Part shown: positions 15,177 to 41,082 of the stretch, piece by piece | Numbering within the stretch: the first letter of the stretch is position 1 | How the letters are laid out: every line of letters starts with the position of its first letter | NCBI GenBank assembly: GCA_049519175.1 | Contig: JBEKQZ010000002.1 | Coordinates: 70,782 to 134,781 of the forward strand | DNA from: Candidatus Levyibacteriota bacterium | Lineage (GTDB): Bacteria > Patescibacteriota > Microgenomatia > Levybacterales > UBA12049 | Direction of reading: 5' to 3' | DNA: 64,000 nucleotides | Position numbers and translations under genes: made by a program | Notes under the pieces: model-generated | The model's database searches: none | Told to the model about the DNA's origin: nothing | Seen by the model: only the letters and a program-made list of their open reading frames with translations

Positions 15177-15812
15177 ATGAAGATTCTTTTACAATCGCTA
15201 ATTCTAGTTTTGTCTTTCGTCTTTGTTTTTGTCTGGAAAGAAACGCCATTCGCCAGTTACACTGTCCCCCTAAGCGGACTCTTGATTGTTTTGTATATTT
15301 TGCTTTCGGCCAGGCAAAAAGGCAAAGGCTTTTTACAGATGGGCGGCGAAGGCCCATGGGGCATTTTCTTTTTAAACACCGTGATACTTTTGCTGATCTT
15401 TTCGACTGGTTCAATTGATTCGGTTTTATTCTTTTTGTTGTATTTCTTGGGTTTCGGCATTGCTTTTGTGTTTGAACCGGCGGTCACCTTTGTTTTTGTG
15501 CTGGGAGTGATTTTAGTTTTTGTTCCCGACGCCATCAAAGGCGATTTATTAGTAAATTCATTAAAACTTGGCTCGCTGCTTTTAATTTCTCCGCTCGCCT
15601 TTTTCTTTGGCAAAGAATACCGCAAAACCGACCAGCAGGATGAAGTAATTGAAGGCCTGGAAGAACGGACCAAAGAAGCCGCCGACACGATTTCCGAAGA
15701 TATCGAAGAAGTAATTAAAGACGAAAAAGCCGGTTTGAAAGACGAAGATATGGAGAAACTGAACGAAATTTTGGAAGAAACCGAAGACTTGAGAGAAGAA
15801 TCAAAGCATTGA
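15177..15812 (+). CDS. integral membrane protein with an acidic C-terminal tail
   Basis: 4-5 TM helices followed by a D/E-rich tail (EEAADTISEDIEEVIKDEKAG...). Confidence 0.5.
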   Translation: MKILLQSLILVLSFVFVFVWKETPFASYTVPLSGLLIVLYILLSARQKGKGFLQMGGEGPWGIFFLNTVILLLIFSTGSIDSVLFFLLYFLGFGIAFVFEPAVTFVFVLGVILVFVPDAIKGDLLVNSLKLGSLLLISPLAFFFGKEYRKTDQQDEVIEGLEERTKEAADTISEDIEEVIKDEKAGLKDEDMEKLNEILEETEDLREESKH

Positions 15813-15888: not shown

Positions 15889-16638
15889 ATGAAAATTAAA
15901 AATTGTAAATTAAAAATTGGCCTCGCTATACTTACTACTTGCTACTTAATACTTACTACTGCGCAGCCGGCGAGCGCTCAAACTATGAGCAACAGCAGCT
16001 ACATTATTCAAATGGGCAATTTAAATTCCATCTCGGGCGAACCGACCGGCTCCGGATATAAATTGAGCTATACTTCCGGGCAAACCGGTCCGGGACTTTA
16101 CTCCGGCACTAATTATAAAGTGCGCGCCGGCTTCCAATATATTTCCTCCATTATCCCCTTCCGCTTTAGCATCACTAACACCTTTATTGATTTTGGTATT
16201 GTCAGTCCGACTTCTCCGGTTTTAAGAACCAGCACTTTAACCATTTCCAACGGTTCCGCTTTTGGCTACCAAGTAACAGCTTCCGAGAATCATAATTTGC
16301 GAGTCAATAGTTCGGGCTTTGAAATTCCGCCGACTGCCTGCGGCGACTCCGGTCCGTCGTGCACGCCAACCTCTGCCGGCCCCTGGACCAGCACCTTAAC
16401 TTACGGCTTTGGTTATAGATGTGATAATCAGACCGGCACCGACTGTGACAGTCAGTTTTCCGACTCCACTTATTACAAACCGTTTATTGCTTCCCCGTCG
16501 GCAGTGGCAGTAATGAGTGGTACCAATGTTAGCAAAAACAGAGTTTCGCAAATCACTTACAAATTAAATATTTCCGGCTCCCAAGCGGCAGGATTGTATA
16601 CAAATGTTATCAATTACATAGCGACACCAACCTTTTAA
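15889..16638 (+). CDS. secreted surface protein with a WxL-like C-terminal module (small member)
   Basis: Signal peptide ending ...TTAQPASA-Q. The C-terminus ...YTNVINYIATPTF resembles the C-terminus of the 496-aa protein (YTATPSF). The 5' end is built from AAATTNN heptamers. Confidence 0.55.
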   Translation: MKIKNCKLKIGLAILTTCYLILTTAQPASAQTMSNSSYIIQMGNLNSISGEPTGSGYKLSYTSGQTGPGLYSGTNYKVRAGFQYISSIIPFRFSITNTFIDFGIVSPTSPVLRTSTLTISNGSAFGYQVTASENHNLRVNSSGFEIPPTACGDSGPSCTPTSAGPWTSTLTYGFGYRCDNQTGTDCDSQFSDSTYYKPFIASPSAVAVMSGTNVSKNRVSQITYKLNISGSQAAGLYTNVINYIATPTF

Positions 16639-16643
16639 GTATC

Positions 16644-17618
16644 ATGAATAAAGTATTAAGTATTAAGTATGGGAAAAGTTTTGGCCTAATCACGGCTGTC
16701 ATACTTACTACTTGTTACTTCATACTAAATACTGAGCCGGCGCACGCTCAATCCGTTGACCTGGGTATTTACCCGCCGGTTTTTCAAATTCAAGCCAACC
16801 CGCCCAGCGACGTAAAAATTCCTTTTTTCATTCAAAATTTCACCAATTCAAGTGTTCCTTTAACCATTTCTCTCAAGCCTTTCACCGCCGACCCGGCGGA
16901 AAATGGCAACATCACTTTTTTGGATGTCCCCGACTATGCCGACCCATATCTGCCGGAAAGAATTCAGGTTTTGGACGCGGATAATTCGGTTGGTGATTTC
17001 ATTCTCTCCCCGCAGCAGAAGAAAAATTTGACGCTGGAAGTGCAAATTCCCAGTAATGAACCCAAAGGCGATTATTACCTGGCATTAGTCTTTTCATCCA
17101 ACGCCGGCAATTCTGGCAATAACACCTCTTCCCAAGTAGCCACCAGCATTGCCAGCAACATTTTGCTTTCAATCGGTCCGGTCGGACCAACCAAAGGTGA
17201 CATTGAAGATTTTTCCACGCCGTTTTTTACCACTAAAGGTCCTGTTCCGTTTACGGTGAGCGTCAGAAATACCAGCGACCATTACCTTACGCCCAAAGGC
17301 TCAATTTTGCTGAAAAATATGTTTGGGCAAGCCATTGGGAAAGTGAATCTTTTACCGGTGAACATTTTGTCTAATACAGTACGCAAAATCCCCGATTCGC
17401 TTCAGACCAATTCGACAACGGCAGTTTGGCCGGAAAAATTCCTGATCGGACCTTATACCGCCATTTTGACTTTAGCGCTATCCGACAGCGGTCCGCTTTT
17501 TACCAGACAAATTATGTTTTTTGCCTTCCCGCTTGAATATTTAGTCGCGATTTTTCTGGTAATCGGCTTAATTATCTTTATCGCCGTCAGGGTAAGCGAA
17601 AACCGCAAAAGACTCTAA
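16644..17618 (+). CDS. DUF916-like cell-surface protein (N-terminal signal, C-terminal TM plus basic tail)
   Basis: Signal peptide MNKVLSIKYGKSFGLITAVILTTCYFILNTEPAHA. C-terminal TM LVAIFLVIGLIIFIAV followed by RVSENRKRL. It is a paralogue of the 19169 gene. Confidence 0.55.
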   Translation: MNKVLSIKYGKSFGLITAVILTTCYFILNTEPAHAQSVDLGIYPPVFQIQANPPSDVKIPFFIQNFTNSSVPLTISLKPFTADPAENGNITFLDVPDYADPYLPERIQVLDADNSVGDFILSPQQKKNLTLEVQIPSNEPKGDYYLALVFSSNAGNSGNNTSSQVATSIASNILLSIGPVGPTKGDIEDFSTPFFTTKGPVPFTVSVRNTSDHYLTPKGSILLKNMFGQAIGKVNLLPVNILSNTVRKIPDSLQTNSTTAVWPEKFLIGPYTAILTLALSDSGPLFTRQIMFFAFPLEYLVAIFLVIGLIIFIAVRVSENRKRL

Positions 17619-17673
17619 AAAACCTTGACAAACCCCAAAAAATACTTCATATTTAATTGTATAGTAGTATAAC

Positions 17674-19164
17674 GTGATAAAAAGATTAACTAAAAATTCA
17701 TCGATACTCGTCCTCTTTCTTTTAATTGCAGGAACATTTTTCACATCTAAGGCTAGCGCTTCTTCCCTCACTCAAGCATCCGACACTATTACTACCTCAA
17801 GACCTTCGGCTGCTGCTACTTTAAGCGCAAACCTTACTTCAAGCTCCACCGCAGCAGAAATCGGAGACAAAGGAGACATCTTTTTGGCTTCCGATTCTGC
17901 CATACTTTCCGCCGATACGGGAGAAACGTTGGAAAAAGTAACGGTCGCCTCGATGTCGGCAACCGGCGTTCCGATTCCTAGTCAGAAAATGGTTTATTTT
18001 ACCACCGCAACAGCAAATTCCCATCACGTCGGAGACGTTGTCATTGTTAATATTACCGCCACACACTTGATTAAATTTAATACCAATGCCGCCGTTCCGA
18101 GCGGAGGACATATCATTCTTACTTTTCCAACTACTAGCGCCAATACCGCTTCTCCTTCGGCCACCGGTTTTTCTTTTAACGGTCTTACGAGCGGCAATAT
18201 GAGCACTTATGTTCAGTGTAATCCGTCAAATGCCTGCGGCGGAAGCAGTCAAAGCGTTTCGGGTAATACCATTACTCTAACTACTACTGGAGCCGTTAGC
18301 GGCACTGTTTATATCTCGGTTGGCTGTCAAAGTGGCGTCAGCTCAAGCGGAATATGTACTACCCCGTCTCCGCTATTGATTAATCCTACCGTTTCTTCCA
18401 CCCAATGCTCCGGCTCAACCTGCACTGCCGGAGCGACAAATGACGTCTGGAAAATTACTGTTCAAACCACCGATACAAATAGCGTTACTCTTGATTCCGC
18501 CAGAGTAATCGTCGGAACAATTGAATCGGTTCAAGTCCAAGCGCAAGTCGAACCGACCTTAACTTTTGCCATCACCGGATTAGCTAATACGACCAATTAC
18601 AACACTACGGTTAGTCAGTGTGGTTCGGAAGCTTCCAACACCGGCATTGATTCCACTGCTACAACCGTTAATCTTGGAATTTTAAATAATGCGCAAATTA
18701 ACCGCGCCGCGCAAACTCTAACTGTTACTACCAACGAAGCTTTTGGTTATACCGTTACTGCTTCTTCTTCCGGACGTTTGATTAGCCCCGCGTCCGGCTT
18801 ATATCTTCCCGACGCCAACGGCGGCTCAGGTTTAACCACCAATCTTCTTCCCGCTCCAGCAGCCATGACCGCCGCCACTCCGGCTTTCGGCATTAGCCCT
18901 TGCGGAGTTGATGTTCCAACTTCCAGTCCCAACTGGGGAGGAACCGGGCAGACGGTTGCTTCAGGAGCTTTATTTGCTAACCCATGGAATAGCGCAGGAA
19001 ACGCCTACGCAATGACACTTGCTAGCTATACCGGCGGCCCTTCAAACGGAACTACAGCGACTCATGGAGTTACTTTGGTTAGATATGGCGCAACCGTTGC
19101 TGGAACAACGGCTTCCGGTGTCTATACAACAACTTTAACCTATACGGCGACGCCGTCATTCTAG
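17674..19164 (+). CDS. secreted Ser/Thr-rich surface protein with a WxL-like C-terminal module (large member)
   Basis: Signal peptide ...SKASA-SS. C-terminus YTTTLTYTATPSF. Thr/Ser/Gly-rich and β-rich. Confidence 0.55.
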   Translation: MIKRLTKNSSILVLFLLIAGTFFTSKASASSLTQASDTITTSRPSAAATLSANLTSSSTAAEIGDKGDIFLASDSAILSADTGETLEKVTVASMSATGVPIPSQKMVYFTTATANSHHVGDVVIVNITATHLIKFNTNAAVPSGGHIILTFPTTSANTASPSATGFSFNGLTSGNMSTYVQCNPSNACGGSSQSVSGNTITLTTTGAVSGTVYISVGCQSGVSSSGICTTPSPLLINPTVSSTQCSGSTCTAGATNDVWKITVQTTDTNSVTLDSARVIVGTIESVQVQAQVEPTLTFAITGLANTTNYNTTVSQCGSEASNTGIDSTATTVNLGILNNAQINRAAQTLTVTTNEAFGYTVTASSSGRLISPASGLYLPDANGGSGLTTNLLPAPAAMTAATPAFGISPCGVDVPTSSPNWGGTGQTVASGALFANPWNSAGNAYAMTLASYTGGPSNGTTATHGVTLVRYGATVAGTTASGVYTTTLTYTATPSF

Positions 19165-19168
19165 TATT

Positions 19169-20167
19169 ATGAATAAAGTATTAAGTATTAAGTATAGAAA
19201 AATTTTCGGCTTATTCATGGTCGTTATACTTACTATTGGCTACTTAATACTAAATACTGCACAGCCGGCGCTCGCCCAAGAAACAACCAGAACCGTCACC
19301 ATTTCTTACCCGACCATCGCTCAAAAACTTGACGCTGGCGGCCAGGCAGAAGGCATCACTAAAGTTACCAACAGAAGCGATACGACTCTAACTTTTAAAT
19401 TAGGCGTCCAGGATTTTATCGTTACTGATACCATTGGCACTCCTGAGTTTTTGCCACCGGGAACGTTGAATGATAAATATTCCGCCGCGGCTTGGATCGG
19501 AGCTACTCCCGATACTTTTACTTTAAAACCCGGAGATTCACAAACCATAAACTATTATATCCAAGTACCTCAAAATGCCAGACCGGGCGGACATTACGCC
19601 GCGCTTGTTTATTCGCCGGTCGTGGACAAAACCGTCAGCGGTTCCGGCAGCACCATTAACTCACAGCTTGGCTCTCTTTTTTACATCACCATCAACGGTC
19701 CGATTCACGAGCAAGCATTGGTCAGCAAGTTTTTCGCCAACCCTTTCCAGGAATATGGCCCGGTCAATGTTTTGACCCAACTTAAAAATCTCGGCGATTT
19801 ACACATCACGCCGCAAGGCACTATTACTGTCACCGGTTTATTCTTTAATCAGACCCAAAACTTGCCGACCCATAACATTTTTCCGGAAGCAGCCAGAGAT
19901 TTTAGCAATACTTTTGGACAGAGTCTGATGATTGGACCGTATAAAGCGGTACTCTTAGCCAGTTACGGCACTAATAATAATCTTCCGCTGATGGCGACCG
20001 TTTCTTTCTGGGTTTTCCCGTGGAGAATAACGCTGGTAATTGTGCTTGCGATAGTCGCTTTGATTCTCGGCGCATTATATCTTAAGAAAAGGAAAAAAGA
20101 CGACTCTAAAAAACCTCAAGAAGCCGAAGTTGAACCTGTAGCTACTCCAACCGAACAAGTGAAATAG
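19169..20167 (+). CDS. DUF916-like cell-surface protein (paralogue of 16644..17618)
   Basis: Nearly identical signal peptide MNKVLSIKYRKIFGLFMVVILTIGYLILNTAQPALA. C-terminal TM followed by KKRKKDDSKK. Confidence 0.55.
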   Translation: MNKVLSIKYRKIFGLFMVVILTIGYLILNTAQPALAQETTRTVTISYPTIAQKLDAGGQAEGITKVTNRSDTTLTFKLGVQDFIVTDTIGTPEFLPPGTLNDKYSAAAWIGATPDTFTLKPGDSQTINYYIQVPQNARPGGHYAALVYSPVVDKTVSGSGSTINSQLGSLFYITINGPIHEQALVSKFFANPFQEYGPVNVLTQLKNLGDLHITPQGTITVTGLFFNQTQNLPTHNIFPEAARDFSNTFGQSLMIGPYKAVLLASYGTNNNLPLMATVSFWVFPWRITLVIVLAIVALILGALYLKKRKKDDSKKPQEAEVEPVATPTEQVK

Positions 20168-20188: not shown

Positions 20189-21046
20189 CTAGTATCCCAT
20201 CCACCAACTGTGGTGCAACGGACGCTTCTTAAGAGGATTGACGAATCGCCTTCCCCACAATTTTCTGATCAGTATAATAATCAGGATAACGATTGGTATG
20301 ACAAGCCAAAGTGGATTCCAAAGCCAGTTCTTTAGAAAACGCAGCAGCTGCTCCCACCAATTATTCACCAAATTCGTCACTTGCTTTGGCTTAGAAATAG
20401 ATGTCAGTTGTAATTTTTTTGTCGGGCTTAAAGACTGTTTTTGTTTATATTCTGCCGTGGCGTACAAACTGTAGTTGCCGGCTTTCAGATTTTTTAAAGC
20501 AAACTCATAATAGCCAGTCGAGTCGGCATAAGTGGTAAGCAATTCCCCATTGACGTGCAAAGTGACTTCGGCTTTGGGCATAGTGTAACCAAAAGCCGTG
20601 GCGCTGCCGCCTTCATTAACGGTTGTTCTGGACAATCCTAAAGTCGGCGGAAGAAAAATGTCTTTCATAGTGACGGAAGCGGTTGCAGGCGGAATCGTAA
20701 AACACGTATAAGATTCGCCTATTCTTTTAAAATCTATCGCATCTAGGCAAAAGCCGGAGAAACCCTGTTTGATTAAAACTTGGTTAATTGTAAAGTCGCC
20801 CTGGGCGTCCGCGGTTGTTCCAATCATAAAAACTCCATTTGAAGTTAAAACAACCGAAGCGAAAGGCGAAATATAGCCGGACAAATTTAAATAGAATTGC
20901 CCCACCGAAGCCTGCACTGCAGTATGTAAAGATCCTGGTGGAATTGAAGACACCTGCGCCAAAGACTGAGAGCTTGGAATGATAAAAAATGCAATTGAAA
21001 TTAAAACAATCAGTAGTAATCTCTTCATTACTGATATTATGCTCAA
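20189..21046 (-). CDS. secreted protein with a C-terminal membrane anchor
   Basis: Signal peptide MKRLLLIVLISIAFFIIPSSQSLA. C-terminal TM LWLVIPIVILIIILI followed by RKLWGRR. Confidence 0.5.
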   Translation of the reverse strand: MSIISVMKRLLLIVLISIAFFIIPSSQSLAQVSSIPPGSLHTAVQASVGQFYLNLSGYISPFASVVLTSNGVFMIGTTADAQGDFTINQVLIKQGFSGFCLDAIDFKRIGESYTCFTIPPATASVTMKDIFLPPTLGLSRTTVNEGGSATAFGYTMPKAEVTLHVNGELLTTYADSTGYYEFALKNLKAGNYSLYATAEYKQKQSLSPTKKLQLTSISKPKQVTNLVNNWWEQLLRFLKNWLWNPLWLVIPIVILIIILIRKLWGRRFVNPLKKRPLHHSWWMGY

Positions 21047-21614: not shown

Positions 21615-24600
21615 ATGGATTTATTAAATTTATTCAAAACCTATTTATTTTCACAGGAAGATAAATCTAGTAAGGTTACGGTTAAAAATTATTTATCGGA
21701 TATCAACCATTTCATCCACTGGTATGAAAACACTTTTACCAAAAGCTTTAATCCGAAAGAAATCTCCAGCTTAACTTTAAACGATTATCGAGCCAGTTGT
21801 TCTCAAGCGTTTTCCCCTAGTTCACTAGAACGACATTTTTCATCGCTTCGCAAGTTTTTTAAGTTCTTGCTGATTGAAAGCAAAATTTCCTTAAATCCAT
21901 TTGAAATTAAGAATTTAAAACTAGAAGCACAGCATGATCCGTGGCACATTAAAGATTTTAAAGATTTTCTCTATGTTAGCAACGCTTCGCATTTGACAAT
22001 CAAAAATTATTTAATTGATATTAAACAATTCATTACTTGGGTACAGGCAGTAACTGAATCAAATAATGTTTTGGGGGATATTGATTCGAAACTGATTGAA
22101 GAATATAAACAAAGACTGCTGGAGCAGGGAGATTTTTCGCCGGCGACGATTAACCGCAAGCTATCTTCGCTTCGCAAATATCTTGCCTGGGTACAAGCTA
22201 AAGGATTAGTCAGTCTGCAGCCATCAATTTCCAATTTCCAATTTCCAATTTCCAATCAATTGAGCAATGAGGCAATTGAACAACCTATCAACCAACAGCC
22301 AGCCGAAAGGAAGTACTCAGCTTTCCCTCCTTTTAGAATAGCTCAGAAGATATCAAATGCATTCATTTTTGCCTTAGACAGTGGTCTAATTATCTATTTG
22401 GCAAAACTGGTAGACCGAATTGAATACGCGCTTTGGAAAACCAAAGGCCAACCGGTTTTTGCTAAACTCAAAACGCAAAACGTAAAATTCAAAAATCTGA
22501 CTTCGAACTTCCAAATTCTAAATCCAGCGTCCAGCGTCCAGCGTCCAGCGTCCGTGAAAAACTTACCGAAATCTTTCTATGCCCCGCTGGAAATCTCTAC
22601 CAAATTTTTTCCGTGGTATAAAAAGGCTTGGATAACTGCCAGATATTCCCGACCAAAGTGGTATAAAACATATCATTCCTATCCAATTGTCCATTATTTA
22701 CACTTTGCGGTTTTGATTATCTTTTTAATCGCTATTAGCTTTGGTTTTTATAACGTGTTTTTTCAAAAAGGTAATCAATCACCAACTTTGGCTGCTAGCC
22801 CGGTTGCGCCGCTAAGAATTTTATCTTTTCAAGGAAGATTAACGGATAACAATGACAACCCAATTACGACACCAACCAACCTCCGTTTTGGCATTTATAC
22901 CAGCTCAAGTGCCACCGACTCTGCCAGCACCGCTATTTTCCCCTGGCAGGAAGTCGACACTGTTTCGCCCGACCAGGATGGAATTTTTAATGCCATCTTA
23001 GGCAACAACTCCCCAATTCCATCCACACTTTTTACGCAAAACAACGCGCTTTGGCTGGGTGTAACCGTTGGCACGACGCCGGAATTAACGCCCCGACAGC
23101 AACTGGCAACTGTTGCTTTTGCCACCAACGCCGAAACCTTGCAAGGAATGGTTCCAACCACTTCCAACCCAGCCGCCTATACCAACACGGTTTTAGCGCT
23201 TGACGGAACTGCCAGCTCGCCTACTCTAACCATTGGCGGACTTGTCGGCGCAACTTTTCAGGCCACCGGCGGACAATTTCAAATCTTAGGGACGCCGCTT
23301 TTGCTTGGCACGACTAATGGGTCTGGCGGAAACGTCATCATCGCGCCCGACGGCGCAGGATTGATTGACTTACAAAAACCGCTCGTTAATACTACAAACA
23401 ATAACAATTTGGCCGGCGCCGCGGGCGCAGTTGAAGTTGATGACACCTTTGGCATTTTAGCTACTAGCTCTGCCACGGCTTTTGTGCTTAACCAAAATGG
23501 CGCCGGAGATTTAATGGCGGCTTCCGCCTCCGGAATAACTAAGTTTAGAATTGCTAATACCGGACAAATTATTGCTCCCTATTACAATAGTTGCACTTTA
23601 AAAACTGACAGTAGTGGAAATATTACTTGTGGAAGCGCTGGCGGAGCGCAATTTTGGCAAGAATTATCCGGCGCTTTGTCCCCTTCCAATCTCGGTGACG
23701 ACGTTTTGCTTGGCAGTTCCAGCACTGCATCTGCCAAATTTGCTTTCACCGGCTTAATGGGAACCCAAACTCAAGCTTCATTTTCGGGACAGCTGATAGT
23801 GATGTCTGACAACGGTTATGGTGGCAATGTCGGCATCGGGACGACTACTCCTTCGGTCGCCTTGGATGTTGCCGGCGCCGGCAAATTCTCTTCCAACCTG
23901 ACCGCTTCCACCGGTAATATTTCTTTAGCTAATACTTCCGGCAATACTACCATCGGCAACGGCTCCGGAACACTGGCTTTATCATCTTCCGCTTTTAACG
24001 TCACGACCGGCGGAGCCGTCTCTGGAGTCACCACTCTATCTATGAATAATCAGCTGAGTAACTCCTACGCTAACACAGCTGCTATCAATTTAACCGGTAA
24101 TGCGGCTGGCATCACTTTCGGCGGCAGCGGAGCTAATCAAATCATCACCGGCGGAACCAATAATCTGGCGCTAATGCCGGGCGGCAACGTCGGTGTTAAT
24201 ACCACTTCTCCGTTAGCGCCCCTGGATGTTCGAGGAAATTCCAGTACTACCGCTGTTGCATCGGTTTCCGGTCAAACTTCCTTTGCCGCATTAGTCGCTA
24301 ACAACAACGGCGTTGGCGATTTATTCACCGCTTCTGCTTCGGGTTGGACCAGGTTTAGAATTACCAGCGCGGGCACAGTTTTACCCGGAGCGACAAATGC
24401 TCAAGATATTGGTTCAAGTTCTTTGCAATGGAACAATATTTACGCCAATAATTATTACCTTAATGGAGTTCCTCTAACTTTTGGCGGTTACTGGCAAAGA
24501 ACCGCCGGCAATCTTTCACCCGTCAATACCAATGACACTTTAGCTGCGACTTCTTCGGCCGCAACTGTAGCAACGTTTACCAGCAATAACCCAACCGGCA

Positions 24601-27600
24601 CACTGACTAACAATACTTTAATCCAACAGACCGGTGGCGGGACCGTTACCAATCTTTTGAATTTAACCCAAAGTGCCGGGGCAGTGACTAACGGCATCAC
24701 TTTTTCCGGAACGTTTACCAGCTTAATTAATGATTCGACTGTTTTTAACATTAGTAACAGCGGGGCAGTTAGTGGAGCATCACTGTTACTTAATGATACT
24801 GCCGGCACTAATACAACTGGCATTGGCACCGGCACCACCACCGGACAAGTCACTATCGGCGGCGGTTCGGGAACAGCGGCGGTTAACACCACTAGCTGGA
24901 AAGTGACCTCAGCTGGAGCTGTCTCCGGCTTAACCGACTTGACAGCTTCCGGAACTATCACTTTCTCTGGTTTCAGCAACAGTGATGGAGTAATTTACGC
25001 TAGCTCAGGAGTGCTTTACCAAACAGCGGCCGAGACATCATCGAGTAAATGTTTGGTCGGCGGCGCTACTGCTCCCGCCTGGGCTTCCTGCTCTACCGCA
25101 GCCAGCAATTACTGGCAAAGGACCGCCGGCAATCTTTCACCTGCCACTACCAATGACACTTTAGCTGCGACTAGCTCTGCCGCAACGGTAGCAACCTTTA
25201 CTACTAATAATCCAACCGGCACTTTAACCAACAATACTTTAATCCAACAGACCGGCGCCGGGACCGTCACCAATCTTTTGAATTTAACCCAAAGTAGCGG
25301 AACTGTTACTAACGCCCTGTCTATCAGCGGGACATTCGCTACCGATTTAATCAGCTCACCGACTCTGGTAGTTACTAATGCCGGCGCTGCTTCCGGCTTA
25401 ACCGGCTTATCTTCTTCCGGAACCATCATTTTCTCCGCTTTCAGCAACAGTGGTGGAGTAATTTACGCTAACGCAGGCGCTCTTGCCCAAACAGCTGCCG
25501 GTACCTCTAGTCAATGTTTGGTTGGCGGCGCTTCTGCTCCCACCTGGGCTTCGTGTTCAGCAGTTTCAAACAACTACTGGAGTTTAGTTAATGGTTATGG
25601 AGCTTCCAACGGTGGGTATATCACGCCCATCAACTCCACCGCTGACTTTTTACTCGGCGGGCAATCCACCGCGTCGGCTAAATTTGCAATCTTGAACCTG
25701 AATAGTGGAACACCGACAGCTACCATCGCCGGCAATTTAATAGTAATGCCCTACACCAGCGGCAGCAACGAATCTGGTGGCGGCATACAACTCGGTTCCA
25801 CCATCAATAGCAACAATGTTTTAAATACAGTAGCTCAAGGTGGTGGACCCAGCGGAAACCTGTATTGGGGAAATACACAATTGCTTGATTCAGCCAATCT
25901 CGGTAGTTTCGGAGCATCGTCGGTCAGTAATTCCGACGGAACTTTAACTATCTCCCCGACTACCGGAGCAGTTGTCGCTTCGCTTAACTTATCCCATGCC
26001 AATTCCTGGAGCGGCGCGCAGACTTTTACCGCCAGCACCAACTTCCCCAGCGGCATTTGGAACACCAGCGGAAACGTTGGCATCGGCATCATTTCTCCTT
26101 TGACGGCTCTTGATGTGCGGGGAAATTCCGGCACCACAGCGGTGGCTTCTGTATCGGGACAGACTTCCTTTGCTGCCTTGGTCGTCAATAACAACGGCGT
26201 TGGCGATTTATTCACCGCTTCTGCCAGCGGCTGGACCAGGTTTACGGTTTCCAACACCGGCGCCTTAACGTCAGCCGCTTACACTGGACAAAACGGAATA
26301 CTGTATGGCACCCAGACAACAGGCGTTATTACTCAAGCCACAACTGCCTCTACTGGCCTTTGCTTAATCTCCGGAGCTTCATCTCCAACCTGGTCTTCCT
26401 GCTCTACCGCGGCCAGCAACTATTGGCAATTGGCCGGAAATGCCATCTCGCCAAATACAACAAGTTATGATTTACTGATTGGTTCTGCATCTACCTCTTC
26501 GGCCGCTTTTGCTTTCACCGGACTCATGGGTAGTCAAACCCAAGCTTCTTTCAGTGGACAGTTTGTCGTGATGCCCAATAATGGTTACGGAGGGAATGCT
26601 TCCATTTCGGGAAATTTAACTATCGGTGCGCTGGGAACCAGCTCTTTACAAACTACCAGCGATCAGACTCTAACTATTGGCGGAAATACCACCGGCAACA
26701 TTACACTTTCCCCCTACAATGGCTCTAACGGAATCATCAATCTTAATGCTCCGACCATCAATACCAATGCTACCACCCTGGCTCTGGTTAACACCACTGC
26801 TCTCACTGTGAATTTTGCCGGTGCTGCCACTGCCTTGAACATGGGAGCTCCCACCGGCAGCGCATCCTTGTCGGCAACACTAGTTCTGGGAGGAACTACC
26901 AGCTCTACCATTGAACCGGGCAACGGCACTTTAAACTTTGGCTACAAATCCGGAGCTAACACTTGGGGAACAGCGATGACAATACGGGACAATACCGGTT
27001 ATGTGGGCATCGGCACAACCAGTCCCGGCGCAACGCTTGATGTCAGCGGTAATTCGGGAACAAAAGCGTTTGCCAATTTTTCGGGAAATACTTCTTTTGC
27101 CGGAGTAACAATTAACAACTCCGGCTCCGGTGACTTAATTGCTGCCTCTGCTTCGGGGACAACTGAATTCAAAGTCGATAATAGCGGCGATGTTTACGGC
27201 AGAGTTTGGAAAGATTTGGACAACACTGCTTATTATATGGATTTAAACACCACCGGCTATTCACTTTTAACCGCCGGTTCTGTCGGAATCGGAACAACAA
27301 GTCCAGGAGCACCGTTAGAAATATCCAACGGAACTCAGGCTAAAATTAATCTTACTAAGACTGGCACAACTGCAGGAACTGCGGCAATATATAACGATGG
27401 CAATCTACACATTACCGGTAGTAACGGAGGCAGTAATAATAGTGTATGGATTGATACAGACTCATCTAGCGGATCGTACTCTGTACATATAAATGCAAAC
27501 AGTACGGGAAGCAAAACGCTTTTACAGGAGGCTGGCGGCAATGTCGGAATTGGGACGACAACACCACAAGCAAGTTTAGATATTGCAAATGGTACAAGCC

Positions 27601-30188
27601 GCACTAATGGCTCCACTGCTCTTCTTTTGTACGGCACCGGCAATGGATCAGGAACTGCAGGAGCTTATTCTTATCCTGCTGAATTCGATACGCAAATTAC
27701 ATCAAATATAGAAAGATTGCAAATTGCAGGATATAAACATGACACAACAGCAGACTGGTCGGGCACAGGTTTTAGAATTCAATATGGAGTCGATAGTTCG
27801 TTTACAGACGGCAGCAAAGCTTATGTATACATCGGCTCAACTACCAGCTATAACGGACTAGTTGCGTTAGGAACGGCCGGAAGCGACAGATTGGTAGTTG
27901 ATAATAGCGGCAATGTCGGAATCGGAACAACAGGACCGGGAGATGGAGCAAATACAACAGGCGTGCTTTCGGTTGAGAATACTATTTGGTCGGAAAGTGG
28001 ACATTTCGGCAGTAACTCCGGTAATGGAGTAGTAGTTATAGATTCAGGCCCAAGTGGCACAAGTAATTATTCCATTATCTTTAGAACAGATAATACGTTG
28101 GGTAATATATCTGGCTACGTCGGCCAGGCAGCCGTCTACAATAACGGAAGAATTGCTATAAGAGGTGCAACTTATATTACCGGCGGTATTGACGTTGCTG
28201 AAATTATCAAGACCCAAGACCTTTCTGTTAATGCCGGCGACATTGTTTCACAGGACAGTAGCTCTCCGACAAGTGCTCAAAAATCGCAAACAGCTTATAG
28301 CCAAAACGTCTTAGGAATAATTTCAACTAATCCGGGAGTTATTCTCAATACTGGAGACAATTTTGAGACTCCCCTATCCCAAAATCAAGTTAAACTAGCT
28401 TTAACAGGACGCGTGCCGCTAAAAGTAACGTCTAAAAATGGCGTTATAAGCTTAGGCGATCCAATTACCTCATCTCCCGTCTCCGGATTTGGCATGAAAG
28501 CAACTCAGGCAGGACAAATCGTTGCTAGAGCAATGGAAACTTTCGACCCAAGCACGGCATTTTGTCAGGCTGTAAATTCAATCTCCGATATACAATGGCC
28601 GGCTGACGATGGAAATAATCCCGCGAAGCCATGTTTTAAATTACCAGATGGCTCATATGTTGGCAAAATAATGGCTTTACCGGAAAACTCTTGGTATGAT
28701 CCACAGGTGTATTTGACTTCAAGCGGAGATTTGAGTTTAGTTGACCAGACGGCGGCCGATACCGACTTTACTGTTCCTCACTACTTTACGTTGAACGACG
28801 CTTTGGGAAATCCCCTGCAAAGAGTCGGAGAATTTTCCGACGCCGCAATCGCGAATTTGCGGGTAGGATTGGTAAATGCCCAGCAGGTAACGACCACTGC
28901 TTTATCGGTTTCAACCGAAAATGTGACAATTGCCGGACAAAGTTTGCATAATTACATCGCTTCTATTGTTTCCGAACAACTGGCGAGCATTCAAAACCTA
29001 ACCTCTAATAATGTTGTCTCCCCGATTGCTTCGACCGACGAAATCCATACCAATTTTGTCTCGCCGGTTGATGATACTGCGCAAATTGGATTGAAACTGG
29101 ATAATAATAAATTGTCTGTTTTGAGCGGTAATTCTGCCAGCTCTTCGGCGATAGCCACCATTGATAATTCGGGCAACGCTAGTTTCAGCGGACAGCTAAC
29201 TTCCAATAGTTTGAACACAAACGACGCGACCGTGAGCGGAACTTTGCATGTCGGGAAAATTATCGCCGACGAAATCGTCGGCGCAACTCCGTCGGCAACT
29301 TACGTTACCAACGTCACCAATATCTATAATAGTAGCCCGTCTGCTTCTAATTCCGACTTTGGACTGATTGCCGACGCCGCTACCGTCGGCACTGCTTCAG
29401 CAGTCGGTAGTGAGCAGTCAGCGGCCAACGGCTACATTGACATCAGTTCTTACTCCGGACAACTGACGTATGTCCCAAATTTGGGCGCTGACAACGCCGT
29501 GTTTGGCCAAAATCTAACGGTGTTTGGAGAAACTTCCCTTTCCGATACTTCGATTGTCGGTCAACTTTCGGTCAACGGCAGCTTAATACTGGCCGATAAC
29601 TCGATTAATGTTTTGGGCAGTGATTTAAATCTGCAACCACTACGGCAAGGCGGACTGTCAATTATGGGCGGCTTAGTTTACATTGATACCGACGGAAACT
29701 TAAAAGTTGGCGGCAATGCCGAGTTTGCCAAAAATGTCACGGTCAATGGAACACTGGCAACCAATGTCATCAGTCCCCTGCCCGGCAATGATTTAAATGT
29801 GAATACCGGAAATTCCAATCTCCAAATTACGAATGCAAGCGATTCCGCTATTTTGAGCGTTAACAATTTAGGCGATTTGGTCGCCAGCGGAGCCGGAACA
29901 TTTAGTAAATTAAACCTTGGGCTGGTTCAGCCGGCGCTGGCCGTTTCCCAAACTGAAGTTGTTGCCACCGGCTCCGCCGGAACAGCCAACATTGCCCCCT
30001 ACCAAACTCAAGTAACAATTGATGACCCGGTCGTAACCGACAAGAGTTTGATTTACATCACGCCGACTTCCAGCACCAACAACCAGGTTTTGTATTTGCT
30101 AAAACAAGTGCCGGATGAATCTTTTACCGTCGGCTTACAAAATCCAAGTATCGCGCCAATTCCGTTCAATTGGATTATCGTAAATTAA
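21615..30188 (+). CDS. giant (2857 aa) membrane-anchored surface protein. The N-terminus has two tandem integrase-type SAM-like/core-binding domains, then one TM helix, then a repetitive Gly/Thr/Ser/Asn-rich β-helix or fibre-like ectodomain
   Basis: Residues ~1-100 (VTVKNYLSDINHFIHWYE...LERHFSSLRKFFKFLL) and ~120-200 (LTIKNYLIDIKQFITWVQ...INRKLSSLRKYLAWVQ) resemble the XerD/phage-integrase N-terminal domain. The TM helix is IVHYLHFAVLIIFLIAISFGFYNVFF. Repeated motifs include GNVGIGTTSP, P(L/A)LDVRGNS...GVGDLFTASASGWTRF and a ~200-aa repeat starting YWQRTAGNLSP. Confidence 0.85.
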   Translation: MDLLNLFKTYLFSQEDKSSKVTVKNYLSDINHFIHWYENTFTKSFNPKEISSLTLNDYRASCSQAFSPSSLERHFSSLRKFFKFLLIESKISLNPFEIKNLKLEAQHDPWHIKDFKDFLYVSNASHLTIKNYLIDIKQFITWVQAVTESNNVLGDIDSKLIEEYKQRLLEQGDFSPATINRKLSSLRKYLAWVQAKGLVSLQPSISNFQFPISNQLSNEAIEQPINQQPAERKYSAFPPFRIAQKISNAFIFALDSGLIIYLAKLVDRIEYALWKTKGQPVFAKLKTQNVKFKNLTSNFQILNPASSVQRPASVKNLPKSFYAPLEISTKFFPWYKKAWITARYSRPKWYKTYHSYPIVHYLHFAVLIIFLIAISFGFYNVFFQKGNQSPTLAASPVAPLRILSFQGRLTDNNDNPITTPTNLRFGIYTSSSATDSASTAIFPWQEVDTVSPDQDGIFNAILGNNSPIPSTLFTQNNALWLGVTVGTTPELTPRQQLATVAFATNAETLQGMVPTTSNPAAYTNTVLALDGTASSPTLTIGGLVGATFQATGGQFQILGTPLLLGTTNGSGGNVIIAPDGAGLIDLQKPLVNTTNNNNLAGAAGAVEVDDTFGILATSSATAFVLNQNGAGDLMAASASGITKFRIANTGQIIAPYYNSCTLKTDSSGNITCGSAGGAQFWQELSGALSPSNLGDDVLLGSSSTASAKFAFTGLMGTQTQASFSGQLIVMSDNGYGGNVGIGTTTPSVALDVAGAGKFSSNLTASTGNISLANTSGNTTIGNGSGTLALSSSAFNVTTGGAVSGVTTLSMNNQLSNSYANTAAINLTGNAAGITFGGSGANQIITGGTNNLALMPGGNVGVNTTSPLAPLDVRGNSSTTAVASVSGQTSFAALVANNNGVGDLFTASASGWTRFRITSAGTVLPGATNAQDIGSSSLQWNNIYANNYYLNGVPLTFGGYWQRTAGNLSPVNTNDTLAATSSAATVATFTSNNPTGTLTNNTLIQQTGGGTVTNLLNLTQSAGAVTNGITFSGTFTSLINDSTVFNISNSGAVSGASLLLNDTAGTNTTGIGTGTTTGQVTIGGGSGTAAVNTTSWKVTSAGAVSGLTDLTASGTITFSGFSNSDGVIYASSGVLYQTAAETSSSKCLVGGATAPAWASCSTAASNYWQRTAGNLSPATTNDTLAATSSAATVATFTTNNPTGTLTNNTLIQQTGAGTVTNLLNLTQSSGTVTNALSISGTFATDLISSPTLVVTNAGAASGLTGLSSSGTIIFSAFSNSGGVIYANAGALAQTAAGTSSQCLVGGASAPTWASCSAVSNNYWSLVNGYGASNGGYITPINSTADFLLGGQSTASAKFAILNLNSGTPTATIAGNLIVMPYTSGSNESGGGIQLGSTINSNNVLNTVAQGGGPSGNLYWGNTQLLDSANLGSFGASSVSNSDGTLTISPTTGAVVASLNLSHANSWSGAQTFTASTNFPSGIWNTSGNVGIGIISPLTALDVRGNSGTTAVASVSGQTSFAALVVNNNGVGDLFTASASGWTRFTVSNTGALTSAAYTGQNGILYGTQTTGVITQATTASTGLCLISGASSPTWSSCSTAASNYWQLAGNAISPNTTSYDLLIGSASTSSAAFAFTGLMGSQTQASFSGQFVVMPNNGYGGNASISGNLTIGALGTSSLQTTSDQTLTIGGNTTGNITLSPYNGSNGIINLNAPTINTNATTLALVNTTALTVNFAGAATALNMGAPTGSASLSATLVLGGTTSSTIEPGNGTLNFGYKSGANTWGTAMTIRDNTGYVGIGTTSPGATLDVSGNSGTKAFANFSGNTSFAGVTINNSGSGDLIAASASGTTEFKVDNSGDVYGRVWKDLDNTAYYMDLNTTGYSLLTAGSVGIGTTSPGAPLEISNGTQAKINLTKTGTTAGTAAIYNDGNLHITGSNGGSNNSVWIDTDSSSGSYSVHINANSTGSKTLLQEAGGNVGIGTTTPQASLDIANGTSRTNGSTALLLYGTGNGSGTAGAYSYPAEFDTQITSNIERLQIAGYKHDTTADWSGTGFRIQYGVDSSFTDGSKAYVYIGSTTSYNGLVALGTAGSDRLVVDNSGNVGIGTTGPGDGANTTGVLSVENTIWSESGHFGSNSGNGVVVIDSGPSGTSNYSIIFRTDNTLGNISGYVGQAAVYNNGRIAIRGATYITGGIDVAEIIKTQDLSVNAGDIVSQDSSSPTSAQKSQTAYSQNVLGIISTNPGVILNTGDNFETPLSQNQVKLALTGRVPLKVTSKNGVISLGDPITSSPVSGFGMKATQAGQIVARAMETFDPSTAFCQAVNSISDIQWPADDGNNPAKPCFKLPDGSYVGKIMALPENSWYDPQVYLTSSGDLSLVDQTAADTDFTVPHYFTLNDALGNPLQRVGEFSDAAIANLRVGLVNAQQVTTTALSVSTENVTIAGQSLHNYIASIVSEQLASIQNLTSNNVVSPIASTDEIHTNFVSPVDDTAQIGLKLDNNKLSVLSGNSASSSAIATIDNSGNASFSGQLTSNSLNTNDATVSGTLHVGKIIADEIVGATPSATYVTNVTNIYNSSPSASNSDFGLIADAATVGTASAVGSEQSAANGYIDISSYSGQLTYVPNLGADNAVFGQNLTVFGETSLSDTSIVGQLSVNGSLILADNSINVLGSDLNLQPLRQGGLSIMGGLVYIDTDGNLKVGGNAEFAKNVTVNGTLATNVISPLPGNDLNVNTGNSNLQITNASDSAILSVNNLGDLVASGAGTFSKLNLGLVQPALAVSQTEVVATGSAGTANIAPYQTQVTIDDPVVTDKSLIYITPTSSTNNQVLYLLKQVPDESFTVGLQNPSIAPIPFNWIIVN

Positions 30189-39677: not shown

Positions 39678-40415
39678 GTGTTATGCTCCAATCCTGCTCC
39701 TGCCACAAACATTAATAAGAAAATGATGAAGAAAATATTCTCTATATTACTACTTGTTGCGGCTTTGAGCATTTTACCAAGGCCTACTTACGCCGATTGC
39801 CAGGCCTTATATGGCGGCGGACAGACTTGCACGTCTTACAGCTTCTCCTTGCAAAAATTTGTCCAGGTTCCCGGCCTTTCCTGGGGGAATTTCGTTAACA
39901 ACCTTTCGGTCAATGACCCGAAATTTTCTCTGTCGCAAACCGTCAATTTTCAAATTGTGGTCACTAACACCGGCTCCAACGACATTTCCAGCGTTACCGT
40001 TGTTGATACTTTTCCGCAGTTTGTCAGCTTTGTCGCCGGCCCCGGCAGTTTTAATACCAATAATAACACTTTGACTTTTGTCGTCAATAATTTGAACGTC
40101 GGACAAAACCAAACTTTTAATTTAAGCGGCAAAATTGCCAACTCCGGAGTTCCACAAGGTATTACTTGCGTTGTTAACCAAGCGGCAGGAACCGATAACA
40201 ACGGCGACACCAACACGGCTTCCAGCCAACTATGCATCCAAAATGTTACTAGCCCGACGCCAACGCCGGTGCTTTTGCCGATCGCGCAGGTCAAAACTAC
40301 TCCCCCAACGGGACCAGAAATGATTCCATTGGCTTTACTTTTCCCCGGAGCTTTAGGGGGATTATTCTTAAGAAGAAAATCTCAAAAATCTATTGTTAAA
40401 GGAGGTGAAAAATAA
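39678..40415 (+). CDS. secreted DUF11-like (conserved-repeat) surface protein with a C-terminal sorting-signal-like tail
   Basis: Signal peptide (likely start MMKKIFSILLLVAALSILPRPTYA at ~39720). VVTNTGSNDISSVTVVDTFPQFVSFV is DUF11-like. The C-terminus TPPTGPEMIPLALLFPGALGGLFLRRKSQKS has a motif, a hydrophobic segment and a basic tail. Confidence 0.5.
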   Translation: MLCSNPAPATNINKKMMKKIFSILLLVAALSILPRPTYADCQALYGGGQTCTSYSFSLQKFVQVPGLSWGNFVNNLSVNDPKFSLSQTVNFQIVVTNTGSNDISSVTVVDTFPQFVSFVAGPGSFNTNNNTLTFVVNNLNVGQNQTFNLSGKIANSGVPQGITCVVNQAAGTDNNGDTNTASSQLCIQNVTSPTPTPVLLPIAQVKTTPPTGPEMIPLALLFPGALGGLFLRRKSQKSIVKGGEK

Positions 40416-41020
40416 TGAAAGGTAAAGAAATAGCAAAAGCATTCCTTATCGCTGGAGGTCTTGGAATAGCAGGAGGAGGATGCAGTAGCGCTCCAGCACC
40501 AACACCAGAGAAAATCTACGTCACTCCAGCACCAACCGTAACGCCAGAAATTATATATGTAACTCCAGCGCCAGGTTGCGATAACGGGTGTGCAGTAGAA
40601 ACTCCAGCGCCTATGCTAAAAGATATCCTAGGGGAACCAAACGTACCTTATACAACTACCGGTTGGTATCTTGTGGACGGTGACGTTTTCGTACAAGCTC
40701 CCGGATGTCAGTTAGCTGATAGAACTTTTGACGATGGTAGATTAACAGGACAGGCAACAGTCGTTCCTCCAGGGACTCGAATTGAAGGACAATGGGGATT
40801 TGATGCTCATCCTTTAGCTCCTGCTGGAGAGGTACCATTAAATGTTAACTCTGATAATATTCTGAGTTATATCCAAAGCGACTCACAGCAAAGAATGCAA
40901 GCTACGTTACACGATTCACGAGGAAATTACCATCTTACTTCAATTAGAGTAAGTTTGTTAAACCCTGATGGAACGCTTAGTGTTCTCGAAACTGTAACAC
41001 CAACGCCACAAGGAAACTAG
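40415..41020 (+). CDS. putative lipoprotein
   Basis: MKGKEIAKAFLIAGGLGIAGGGCSS has a lipobox-like GGC, followed by a TPAP-rich linker. Confidence 0.5.
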   Translation: MKGKEIAKAFLIAGGLGIAGGGCSSAPAPTPEKIYVTPAPTVTPEIIYVTPAPGCDNGCAVETPAPMLKDILGEPNVPYTTTGWYLVDGDVFVQAPGCQLADRTFDDGRLTGQATVVPPGTRIEGQWGFDAHPLAPAGEVPLNVNSDNILSYIQSDSQQRMQATLHDSRGNYHLTSIRVSLLNPDGTLSVLETVTPTPQGN

Positions 41021-41082
41021 TTCCTTGTTTAACGTTTAAACGCTAAAAAAGGCGGGATAAACCCTGCCTTTTTGGGTTAACT

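Follow-up and report, generated by a model that had tools for sequence, protein, structure and literature searches.

A cassette of four genes in the genome of a Candidatus Levyibacteriota bacterium probably encodes a deeply divergent Pam-type donor-strand pilus, with a PamT-like and a PamA-like subunit and two PamC/D-like chaperones; we put the probability of this reading at roughly 0.72. The cassette occupies positions 15889-20167 of a 64-kb stretch of DNA (GCA_049519175.1, contig JBEKQZ010000002.1, positions 70,782 to 134,781), referred to here as the window, and all coordinates are positions within it. A preliminary description, made from the sequence alone, had reported four co-oriented genes alternating between two protein types, and a check of the open reading frames (ORFs) returned exactly those coordinates: the genes lie on the + strand, densely packed, with intergenic gaps of 5, 55 and 4 nucleotides (nt), and the two types alternate. 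The cassette is real and well beyond chance, as its gene order is kept in dozens of genomes with proteins 40-80% identical. Its genes are as follows, with lengths in amino acids (aa).

15889..16638, + strand: small type 1 protein, 249 aa, PamT-like single-domain subunit (NF058579 and NF058581 matches)
16644..17618, + strand: type 2a protein, 324 aa, membrane-anchored WxLIP/PapD-like putative chaperone (AlphaFold2 model, Foldseek, PF06030, hhalign)
17674..19164, + strand: large type 1 protein, 496 aa, GTG start, PamA-like two-domain pilin (NF058581, AlphaFold2 model, conservation)
19169..20167, + strand: type 2b protein, 332 aa, membrane-anchored paralogue of type 2a, putative chaperone that presumably serves the large pilin (identity to type 2a, PF06030, transmembrane helix, co-occurrence)

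Bacteria of the candidate phyla radiation (CPR), or Patescibacteria, need to make contact with host cells, and few of their surface appendages have been annotated. A divergent Pam-type cassette would be a conserved, syntenic trait of Levybacteria whose proteins carry only the name 'hypothetical protein' in the source records seen and score below the NCBIfam cut-offs. Hidden Markov models (HMMs) of both types found no copies in the 64-kb window beyond the two of each listed above, and a scan for promoters and terminators gave signals no better than chance.

Subunits, chaperones and a predicted fibre

Pam pili are known from Ca. Mycosynbacter amalyticus, in which electron cryo-microscopy (cryo-EM) identified two pilins, PamA and PamB. 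The pam operon also encodes PamT, a single-domain putative tip, the FimC/PapD-like PamC and PamD, which have a C-terminal transmembrane (TM) helix, and PamR, an RbmA-like protein with two fibronectin type III (FnIII) domains and a C-terminal TM helix (bioRxiv 10.64898/2026.03.03.709456). Homologues were reported in CPR only, mainly in Saccharimonadia and Microgenomatia, with those of Microgenomatia found solely by language-model search, and a protein described as 'tail fibre-like' is listed among the conserved pam neighbours (10.64898/2026.03.03.709456). The earlier statement that loci such as the present one are not described in CPR is outdated, given this preprint and the family models NF058579 and NF058581, Microgenomatia included.

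The two type 1 proteins share only 38% identity over 60 aa by BLASTP. Their family profiles align with an hhalign probability of 97.4-98% (E 1e-11 to 2e-13, 143-151 columns), and therefore they have a common C-terminal domain and the 'types' of the preliminary description are real; the tails it had pointed out, NYIATPTF in the 249-aa protein and TYTATPSF in the 496-aa protein, are both present. This domain resembles the C-terminal domain of Pam pilins. NF058581 (Pam_pilin_C) scores 26.3 bits on residues 96-249 of the small protein (model positions 2-148 of 148) and 25.9 bits on residues 329-496 of the large one (3-148 of 148), and NF058579 (PamT) scores 36.7 bits on residues 11-133 of the small protein. 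The matches extend across the families. At E<=0.01, NF058581 is found in 47 of 49 homologues of the large protein (best E 5.1e-11), and in 41/41 close homologues and 118/129 diverse representatives of the small protein (best E 7.8e-12). NF058579 matches 40/41 and 85/129 of the latter two sets, respectively (best E 1.2e-16). That both models match family-wide, with the C-terminal domain aligned end to end, supports the assignment to the Pam system. No Pfam domain was found in either type 1 protein, and PDB sequence and profile searches with both types gave nothing meaningful.

The small protein begins with a signal peptide (aa 1-30, ...PASA|QT), followed by a very conserved N-terminal region (aa 31-85) and the pilin-type C-terminal domain (aa ~86-249), which ends in ...NYIATPTF. 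Its cysteines 151, 158, 178 and 186 are invariant in the Levybacteria alignment (A4), and the mature part of the large protein has eight; both proteins carry paired cysteines, which would fit the disulfides that PamA and PamB are reported to have. The mature N-terminus (aa 31-85, window 15981-16140) starts directly after the predicted cleavage site and is as conserved as the C-terminal domain. It contains three loose Ser/Thr/Gly-rich repeats, each followed by Tyr (SNSSY, GSGYKLSY, SGTNYKV), and self-complementation and host binding are possibilities for its role. The public gene call of an identical small protein (P0241) starts at Met33 and gives 217 aa without a signal peptide; the longer form is favoured because most homologues are 240-260 aa long.

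In the large protein, a signal peptide is followed by an all-beta N-terminal domain (aa ~30-285), a linker (aa ~292-302) with the highly conserved strand VEPTLTFAITG, and the C-terminal domain (~325-496), which ends in ...TYTATPSF. The AlphaFold2 (AF2) model (predicted local distance difference test, pLDDT, 80.1) places a strand at 296-302, within the most conserved stretch of the family and ahead of the C-terminal domain; V286, V288, Q289, E293, P294, T297, F298, I300 and G302 are the conserved columns of this stretch. The linker is a putative donor strand, and the predicted plan of all-beta domain, conserved linker and C-terminal domain fits that of PamA and PamB.

The type 2 proteins fit the chaperone part of such a system. 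They had been described as proteins of ~330 aa with a signal peptide, a C-terminal TM segment and a basic tail, and this holds: each has one hydrophobic 19-mer near its C-terminus (297-315 in type 2a, 287-305 in type 2b), after which comes a basic tail (KKRKK in type 2b). Types 2a and 2b are paralogues with 26% identity over their full length (BLASTP E 1e-23). In type 2a the signal peptide precedes a DUF916-like beta-sandwich (aa ~37-152), a second beta-sandwich (~185-295), the TM helix (297-323) and the basic tail; its AF2 model (pLDDT 85.8) consists of the two beta-sandwich domains and the C-terminal helix at 297-323. A loop at aa ~152-167 is poorly conserved and of low AF2 confidence, and the segment SNILLSIGP that follows is among the most conserved strands of the family. 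We take this loop and strand to be equivalent to the F1-G1 loop and G1 donor strand of the chaperones of chaperone-usher systems.

The best Foldseek match of type 2a in the PDB is the Enterococcus faecium WxLIP 9i1y (E 2.5e-11), followed by 9i25_C ('WxLIP ... bound to long WxL'), RbmA and then the chaperones of chaperone-usher pili, namely CfaA, CsuC, Caf1M, SafB, FimC and DraB (E 1e-9 to 4e-7). PapD_N and PapD_C (PF00345, PF02753) match neither type 2 protein. On its predicted structure, type 2 is DUF916/WxLIP-like and a membrane-anchored PapD-like protein of the PamC/PamD kind alike, and the two descriptions converge.

Several further observations back the Pam reading. Two elements of the Pam system, the NF058581-type C-terminal domain and FimC/PapD-like proteins with a C-terminal TM helix, are present in the cassette; the two beta-sandwiches and TM helix of type 2 are the architecture of PamC and PamD, and a type 2 gene comes after each of the subunit genes. 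Levybacteria belong to the Microgenomates, one of the two classes with reported Pam homologues, and a huge fibre-like gene adjoins the cassette, as a 'tail fibre-like protein' does among the pam neighbours, both of which lend weight to this reading.

If the cassette works as the cryo-EM of M. amalyticus and the WxLIP-WxL complex suggest for their own components, then all products would be exported by Sec, and the C-terminal helix of the type 2 proteins would keep them anchored in the cytoplasmic membrane. There they would act as PapD/WxLIP-like chaperones, each placing a beta-strand into the incomplete immunoglobulin (Ig)-like C-terminal domain of its cognate type 1 protein. The small, PamT-like subunit would start or cap the fibre. 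The large, PamA-like subunit would polymerise by donor-strand exchange, with the linker VEPTLTFAITG donated to the subunit before it, where it would take the place of the chaperone strand in the C-terminal domain. A protein with Ig-like domains and a TM segment (the Ig-TM protein), encoded convergently just downstream, might terminate and anchor the fibre, as proposed for PamR, and the outcome would be a thin linear filament for contact with a host cell or surface.

There are several points that weigh against this reading. The curated cut-offs are missed widely, with 26 bits against 55 for NF058581 and 37 against 240 for NF058579. A whole-chain Foldseek search with the 496-aa model gave weak multi-domain matches (CfaB, E 0.078; TasA, E 0.074), and 25PZ and 25QA were absent from the PDB search results; the likeness to Pam comes from the family models and the published description. 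The operon make-up also departs from that of M. amalyticus: it has two subunits where M. amalyticus has four, and ATP synthase genes were absent from the neighbours scanned. The small subunit and a single type 2 gene are all that 25 of 57 related loci retain, which is odd for a pure tip pilin. Strand complementation in this locus is itself predicted by analogy with the M. amalyticus pilus and the WxLIP-WxL complex. The scores also bear on a reading in which these are unrelated secreted Ig-like adhesins and membrane proteins, whose Pam and WxLIP matches reflect fold convergence without a shared mechanism. Every match to a curated model lies below its cut-off, and Ig-like folds yield many spurious matches, such as RbmA, CEP192 and transglutaminase; yet the matches here are family-wide and cover the full model length, subunit and chaperone genes are strictly paired in conserved synteny, and two Ig domains with a TM helix fit both WxLIP and PamC/D. 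Convergence of this kind is therefore very improbable.

Possible relation to the WxL clusters of Firmicutes

WxL/Csc clusters of Firmicutes encode a small WxL protein, a large WxL protein and WxLIP, which comprises DUF916, DUF3324 and a TM segment (PMC10599100, PMC9772566). The preliminary description had read the present cassette as such a cluster. Under this explanation the products would form a non-filamentous surface complex, in which a WxLIP tethers a small and a large adhesin by strand complementation for adhesion or polysaccharide binding. We consider it unlikely, although it is the strongest of the competing explanations, and it may be compatible with the Pam reading if WxL clusters and Pam pili belong to one superfamily.

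The resemblance is clearest in the type 2 proteins. On the 324-aa protein, PF06030 (WxLIP_PGBD, that is DUF916) reaches 26.2 bits, just short of its gathering score (27.3); it gives 16.6 bits on the 332-aa protein and matches all 55 type 2 homologues (best E 8.6e-11). The type 2 family aligns with verified Firmicute WxLIPs at an hhalign probability of 91.5% (E 8.8e-7) over 128 columns, within the DUF916 domain only. Together with 9i1y and 9i25 as the top folds, these results bear out the earlier designation of type 2 as DUF916-like, and they speak for a WxL/Csc complex at the level of Pfam, profile and fold. The second half of the protein gives a different result. The DUF3324 search that had been proposed as a check (PF11797) matched 0/55 type 2 homologues, and domain 2 of type 2 aligns with the WxLIP HBD at an hhalign probability of 0.11%; the second Ig-like domain sits where DUF3324 does in WxLIP. 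In the profile alignment, the CPR type 2 sequences have a gap of 11 residues (YPPV-----------FQIQA) where WxLIPs carry the motif NQIDKxxxYFDLK. The absence of DUF3324 and of this motif counts against a WxL/Csc complex.

The type 1 proteins were compared with WxL proteins by use of 29 Firmicute-type WxL loci from metagenomes as positive controls, retrieved through the motif NQIDKxxxYFDLK. In these, the small WxL proteins score 140-244 bits on PF13731 (WxL) and the partners carry PF06030 and PF11797; the WxL profile retrieves 9i25_A (E 4.9e-9), and WxLIP retrieves 9i1y and 9i25_C (E 1e-43). PF13731 gave no match to either type 1 protein of the window at E<=10 and none to the 49 large type 1 homologues at E<=1, and it is not among the families listed for the 129 small type 1 representatives. 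Conversely, 0/21 verified WxL proteins match the Pam models, although these CPR-specific models do match type 1. Both results argue against membership of the WxL family. The negative PF13731 result is weak evidence against a remote relationship, because a verified 1112-aa large WxL protein is missed as well. This protein (L005:10338-13676, - strand) is an example of the under-detection of the large WxL class by PF13731, which gives 30.8 bits on another member (L027:940-3594, + strand).

Profile-profile comparison was run small against small, large against large, with merged alignments, with the 129-sequence profile, with permissive mact and in global mode. The best type 1-WxL alignment has an hhalign probability of 3.9% (E 0.011, score 22.4, 103 collinear columns) and places GYQVT on the first WxL motif (GWxLxV) and YTNVINYIATP on the second (YttTLTWxLxDTP). 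Its score exceeds that of 100 column-shuffled nulls (z 5.75) and of the reversed profile, and this collinear similarity at both motifs speaks for a WxL/Csc complex. On the other side, control pairs of unrelated profiles score 23-27 (27.0 for the type 1 C-terminal domain with type 2, 23.7 for type 2 with WxL), and the weak alignments are only partly collinear. The similarity was rejected as proof of homology, as the control pairs score equally. The WxL HMM also ranks type 1 above other ORFs of the same loci, with no enrichment of type 2 and Ig-TM proteins; this favours a WxL relationship but is suggestive only, because family members are non-independent and the placements only partly collinear. 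In the fold search with the large pilin model, the WxL chain 9i25_A did not come up among the top 50 matches, again to the disadvantage of a WxL/Csc complex.

The earlier reading as a WxL/Csc cluster therefore stands in part. The WxL assignment of type 1 finds no support in PF13731 or in the hhalign probabilities, which reach at most 3.9%; the similarity is confined to the two collinear motifs, with the Trp of both replaced (Tyr-x-Val and Tyr-x-Ala), and a remote relationship to WxL is no more than suggested. The logic of the cluster does match that of WxL loci, as had been noted, with a small single-domain protein, a large one with the same domain at its C-terminus, and a TM-anchored partner with two Ig domains; this shared composition is a further point in favour of a WxL/Csc complex.

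A broader proposal joins the two systems. A single ancient system of monoderms, which has no usher and in which membrane-anchored chaperones serve strand-complemented subunits, may comprise both the CPR Pam pili and the Firmicute WxL/Csc clusters as its two branches. The DUF916 proteins would be PapD-like chaperones, and the C-terminal domains of WxL and Pam proteins homologous incomplete Ig folds in which W-x-L has become Y-x-V/A. We offer this tentatively, as the odds fall somewhat short of even; the chaperone half of the link is supported, and the evidence for the subunit half is only suggestive. If the proposal is true, donor-strand exchange might also be how WxL proteins assemble in Enterococcus, Listeria and Lactobacillus, and Pam components would exist outside CPR as well, contrary to the conclusion of the preprint. 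If the subunits are related too, the literatures on Pam pili and on WxL virulence and adhesion would describe one system, and the model of WxL proteins as passive peptidoglycan-bound platforms would need revisiting. Pam-type pili in CPR are already described. The link of their chaperone-like component to Firmicute WxL clusters appears to be unreported: neither WxL nor DUF916 is mentioned in the Pam preprint (10.64898/2026.03.03.709456), and no paper linking WxL clusters to strand-exchange pili was found in the literature searched.

Gene neighbourhood and conservation

The cassette was compared over 80 related loci (L034-L113), of which 57 are bracketed by the small type 1 gene on one side and a giant gene on the other. 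The neighbours of the cassette, and a repeat within it, are as follows.

15177..15812, + strand: polytopic membrane protein, 211 aa, with an acidic C-terminal tail (hydrophobic segments, conserved upstream neighbour)
20189..21046, - strand: convergent Ig-TM protein, 285 aa, candidate PamR-like terminator or anchor (Pfam domains, TM segment, co-occurrence)
21615..30188, + strand: giant protein of 2857 aa adjoining the cassette, context only (Phage_int_SAM_1, TM segment)
16638..16734, + strand: direct repeat of 97 nt over a start codon and signal-peptide coding region (DNA comparison with 19163-19259)

Across the 80 loci the gene order is leucyl-tRNA synthetase (LeuRS, - strand), the 211-aa membrane protein, small type 1, type 2, an optional block of large type 1, type 2b and the convergent Ig-TM gene, and the giant gene. 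The full block is present in 26 of the 57 bracketed loci; in another 25, which are minimal, the giant gene comes straight after a pair made up of the small subunit and a single type 2 gene, and six add the Ig-TM gene only. The large pilin and type 2b occur together in 26/26 loci, and type 2b is found in none of the 31 loci that lack the large pilin. That the two are never apart argues for cognate subunit-chaperone pairs, and the full and minimal forms of the locus, together with the giant neighbour, lead to hypotheses on the core components of the system.

The Ig-TM protein has a signal peptide, two Ig-like domains matched by CarboxypepD_reg (32.9 bits) and Big_6 (24.1 bits) and a C-terminal TM segment at 242-260, and is encoded in 32 of the 57 bracketed loci, including all 26 full ones. 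Its architecture matches PamR as described, and it may be a PamR-like anchor. The cytoplasmic tail is conserved, reading HHSWWMGY here and HHWWMKGVGY or HHHWMKGVGY in relatives (L091-L109). On the other side of the cassette, the 211-aa membrane protein lies upstream of small type 1 in 69/80 loci. It has no Pfam match and sub-threshold NCBIfam matches only (E >= 0.065), and it may belong to the system as a membrane component.

The giant gene adjoins the cassette in 57 of the 80 loci, that is in all in which this side is readable; most of the other 23 stop at a contig edge. The proposal to look for homologous cassettes beside giant proteins in related genomes was thus borne out in every readable locus. 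Its product has two cytoplasmic SAM-like domains of the tyrosine-recombinase type (Phage_int_SAM_1, 65.5 bits over two stretches) without a catalytic domain, a TM segment at 358-376 and an extracellular region of ~2480 aa that ends in ..FNWIIVN; 9/10 complete orthologues end in ..(F/I)NW(I/L/W)I(V/I)N. A module of DNA-binding type would then sit at the cytoplasmic end of what looks like a surface fibre.

This constant neighbour raises a further explanation, in which the core of the locus (the small type 1 protein and one type 2 protein) is not an independent pilus but an accessory module that might fold, cap or dock the giant surface protein, and the large pilin block is an optional add-on. 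The adjacency itself fits such a module. So do the 25 minimal loci, in which the giant gene is directly preceded by the genes of this core alone, and the small protein, which is conserved more than any other component (its best 120 matches are 62-100% identical). However, HMM searches found no type 1-like domain or donor motif in the giant protein, and no type 1-like domain in any other ORF of the window. The giant protein also brings a TM anchor of its own at the N-terminus, the PamT model matches the small protein, and synteny by itself is no proof of interaction. We regard an accessory module as improbable, less so than convergence of folds but more so than a WxL/Csc complex, and a divergent Pam-type pilus as the better account of the locus.

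The small type 1 family has 1190 close matches, one of them named Candidatus Levybacteria, and 1501 representatives at 50% clustering. The informatively named carriers in GTDB are almost all Levybacteria or Levyibacteriota (Microgenomates group); the others have generic titles ('Patescibacteria group bacterium') or, in a few isolated cases, other labels. The syntenic locus is also carried by many records titled 'uncultured Gammaproteobacteria bacterium isolate binchicken_/SRP..._co...' (L039, L043-L048 and others), and these titles look like placeholders or wrong organism names.

The signal peptide MNKVLSIKY, which had been reported as conserved between the type 2 proteins, is real and reflects a repeat at the DNA level. 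The repeat spans 97 nt with 85% identity (16638-16734 and 19163-19259), and a partial copy at 15923-15981 has 85% identity over 59 nt, so that the signal-peptide regions of three of the four genes are involved. Paralogues in another genome (L037) do not share their signal peptides, and no within-genome homogenisation of signal peptides was seen in other genomes, by a crude extraction from a small sample. A DNA repeat of 85% identity, despite the 26% identity of the mature type 2 proteins and the lack of sharing in L037, suggests recent gene conversion at the signal-peptide regions in this lineage.

Elsewhere in the window, a second possible set of surface proteins lies at 39678-44808 (+ strand). 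It includes a 245-aa protein with a DUF11-type repeat (TIGR01451, 29 bits) and proteins of 201 and 1241 aa without a family match.

Comparison with known systems

The chaperone-usher pili of Gram-negative bacteria share with the cassette the fold of the type 2 proteins, as seen in CfaA, CsuC, Caf1M, FimC, SafB and DraB, and presumably donor-strand complementation and exchange. They differ from it in several respects: here there is no outer membrane and no usher among the neighbours scanned, the chaperone is membrane-anchored, the putative donor strand is an inter-domain linker rather than an N-terminal extension, and neither PapD_N/C nor fimbrial Pfam families are matched.

WxL/Csc clusters resemble the cassette in the DUF916 domain of the type 2 proteins, at the level of sequence and profile, and in two Ig domains with a TM segment, at the level of fold. 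In both, a small single-domain protein accompanies a large one with the same domain at its C-terminus, though here with two TM-anchored partners; a C-terminal box of the form Y-x3-[LIV]-x-aromatic-x-[AL]-x-P is shared, and the partner is predicted to complete the beta-sandwich of the other protein with one strand. Unlike WxL/Csc clusters, the cassette lacks a PF13731 match, a DUF3324 signature and the NQIDKxxxYFDLK motif, type 1 profiles show no significant similarity to WxL, and the two Trp of the dual WxL motif have given way to Tyr (Tyr-x-Val, Tyr-x-Ala). The host, too, is an ultrasmall member of the CPR and not a Firmicute, and there is no LPxTG partner.

The Pam pilus is the closest counterpart. 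In contrast to the pam operon, the Levybacteria locus alternates subunit and chaperone genes strictly, its candidate anchor gene is convergent, and it has two subunit genes instead of four, with about half of the related genomes keeping the small subunit and one chaperone; ATP synthase, CorB and MFS genes were not found among the neighbours scanned here. For Levybacteria, filaments are predicted. Common to both are the CPR lineage and subunits whose truncated-Ig-type C-terminal domain matches NF058581, including a single-domain subunit of ~240 aa that matches the PamT model and a large subunit in which, on the predicted structure, a conserved linker strand lies between an all-beta N-terminal domain and the C-terminal domain. 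In both, the partners are PapD-like two-domain proteins whose TM helix is C-terminal, an Ig-domain TM protein (here a candidate) would serve as anchor, there is no usher, and a fibre-like protein (a giant one here) is encoded nearby. With scores far below the NCBIfam cut-offs, the Levybacteria cassette would thus represent a distinct, deeply divergent clade of this system.

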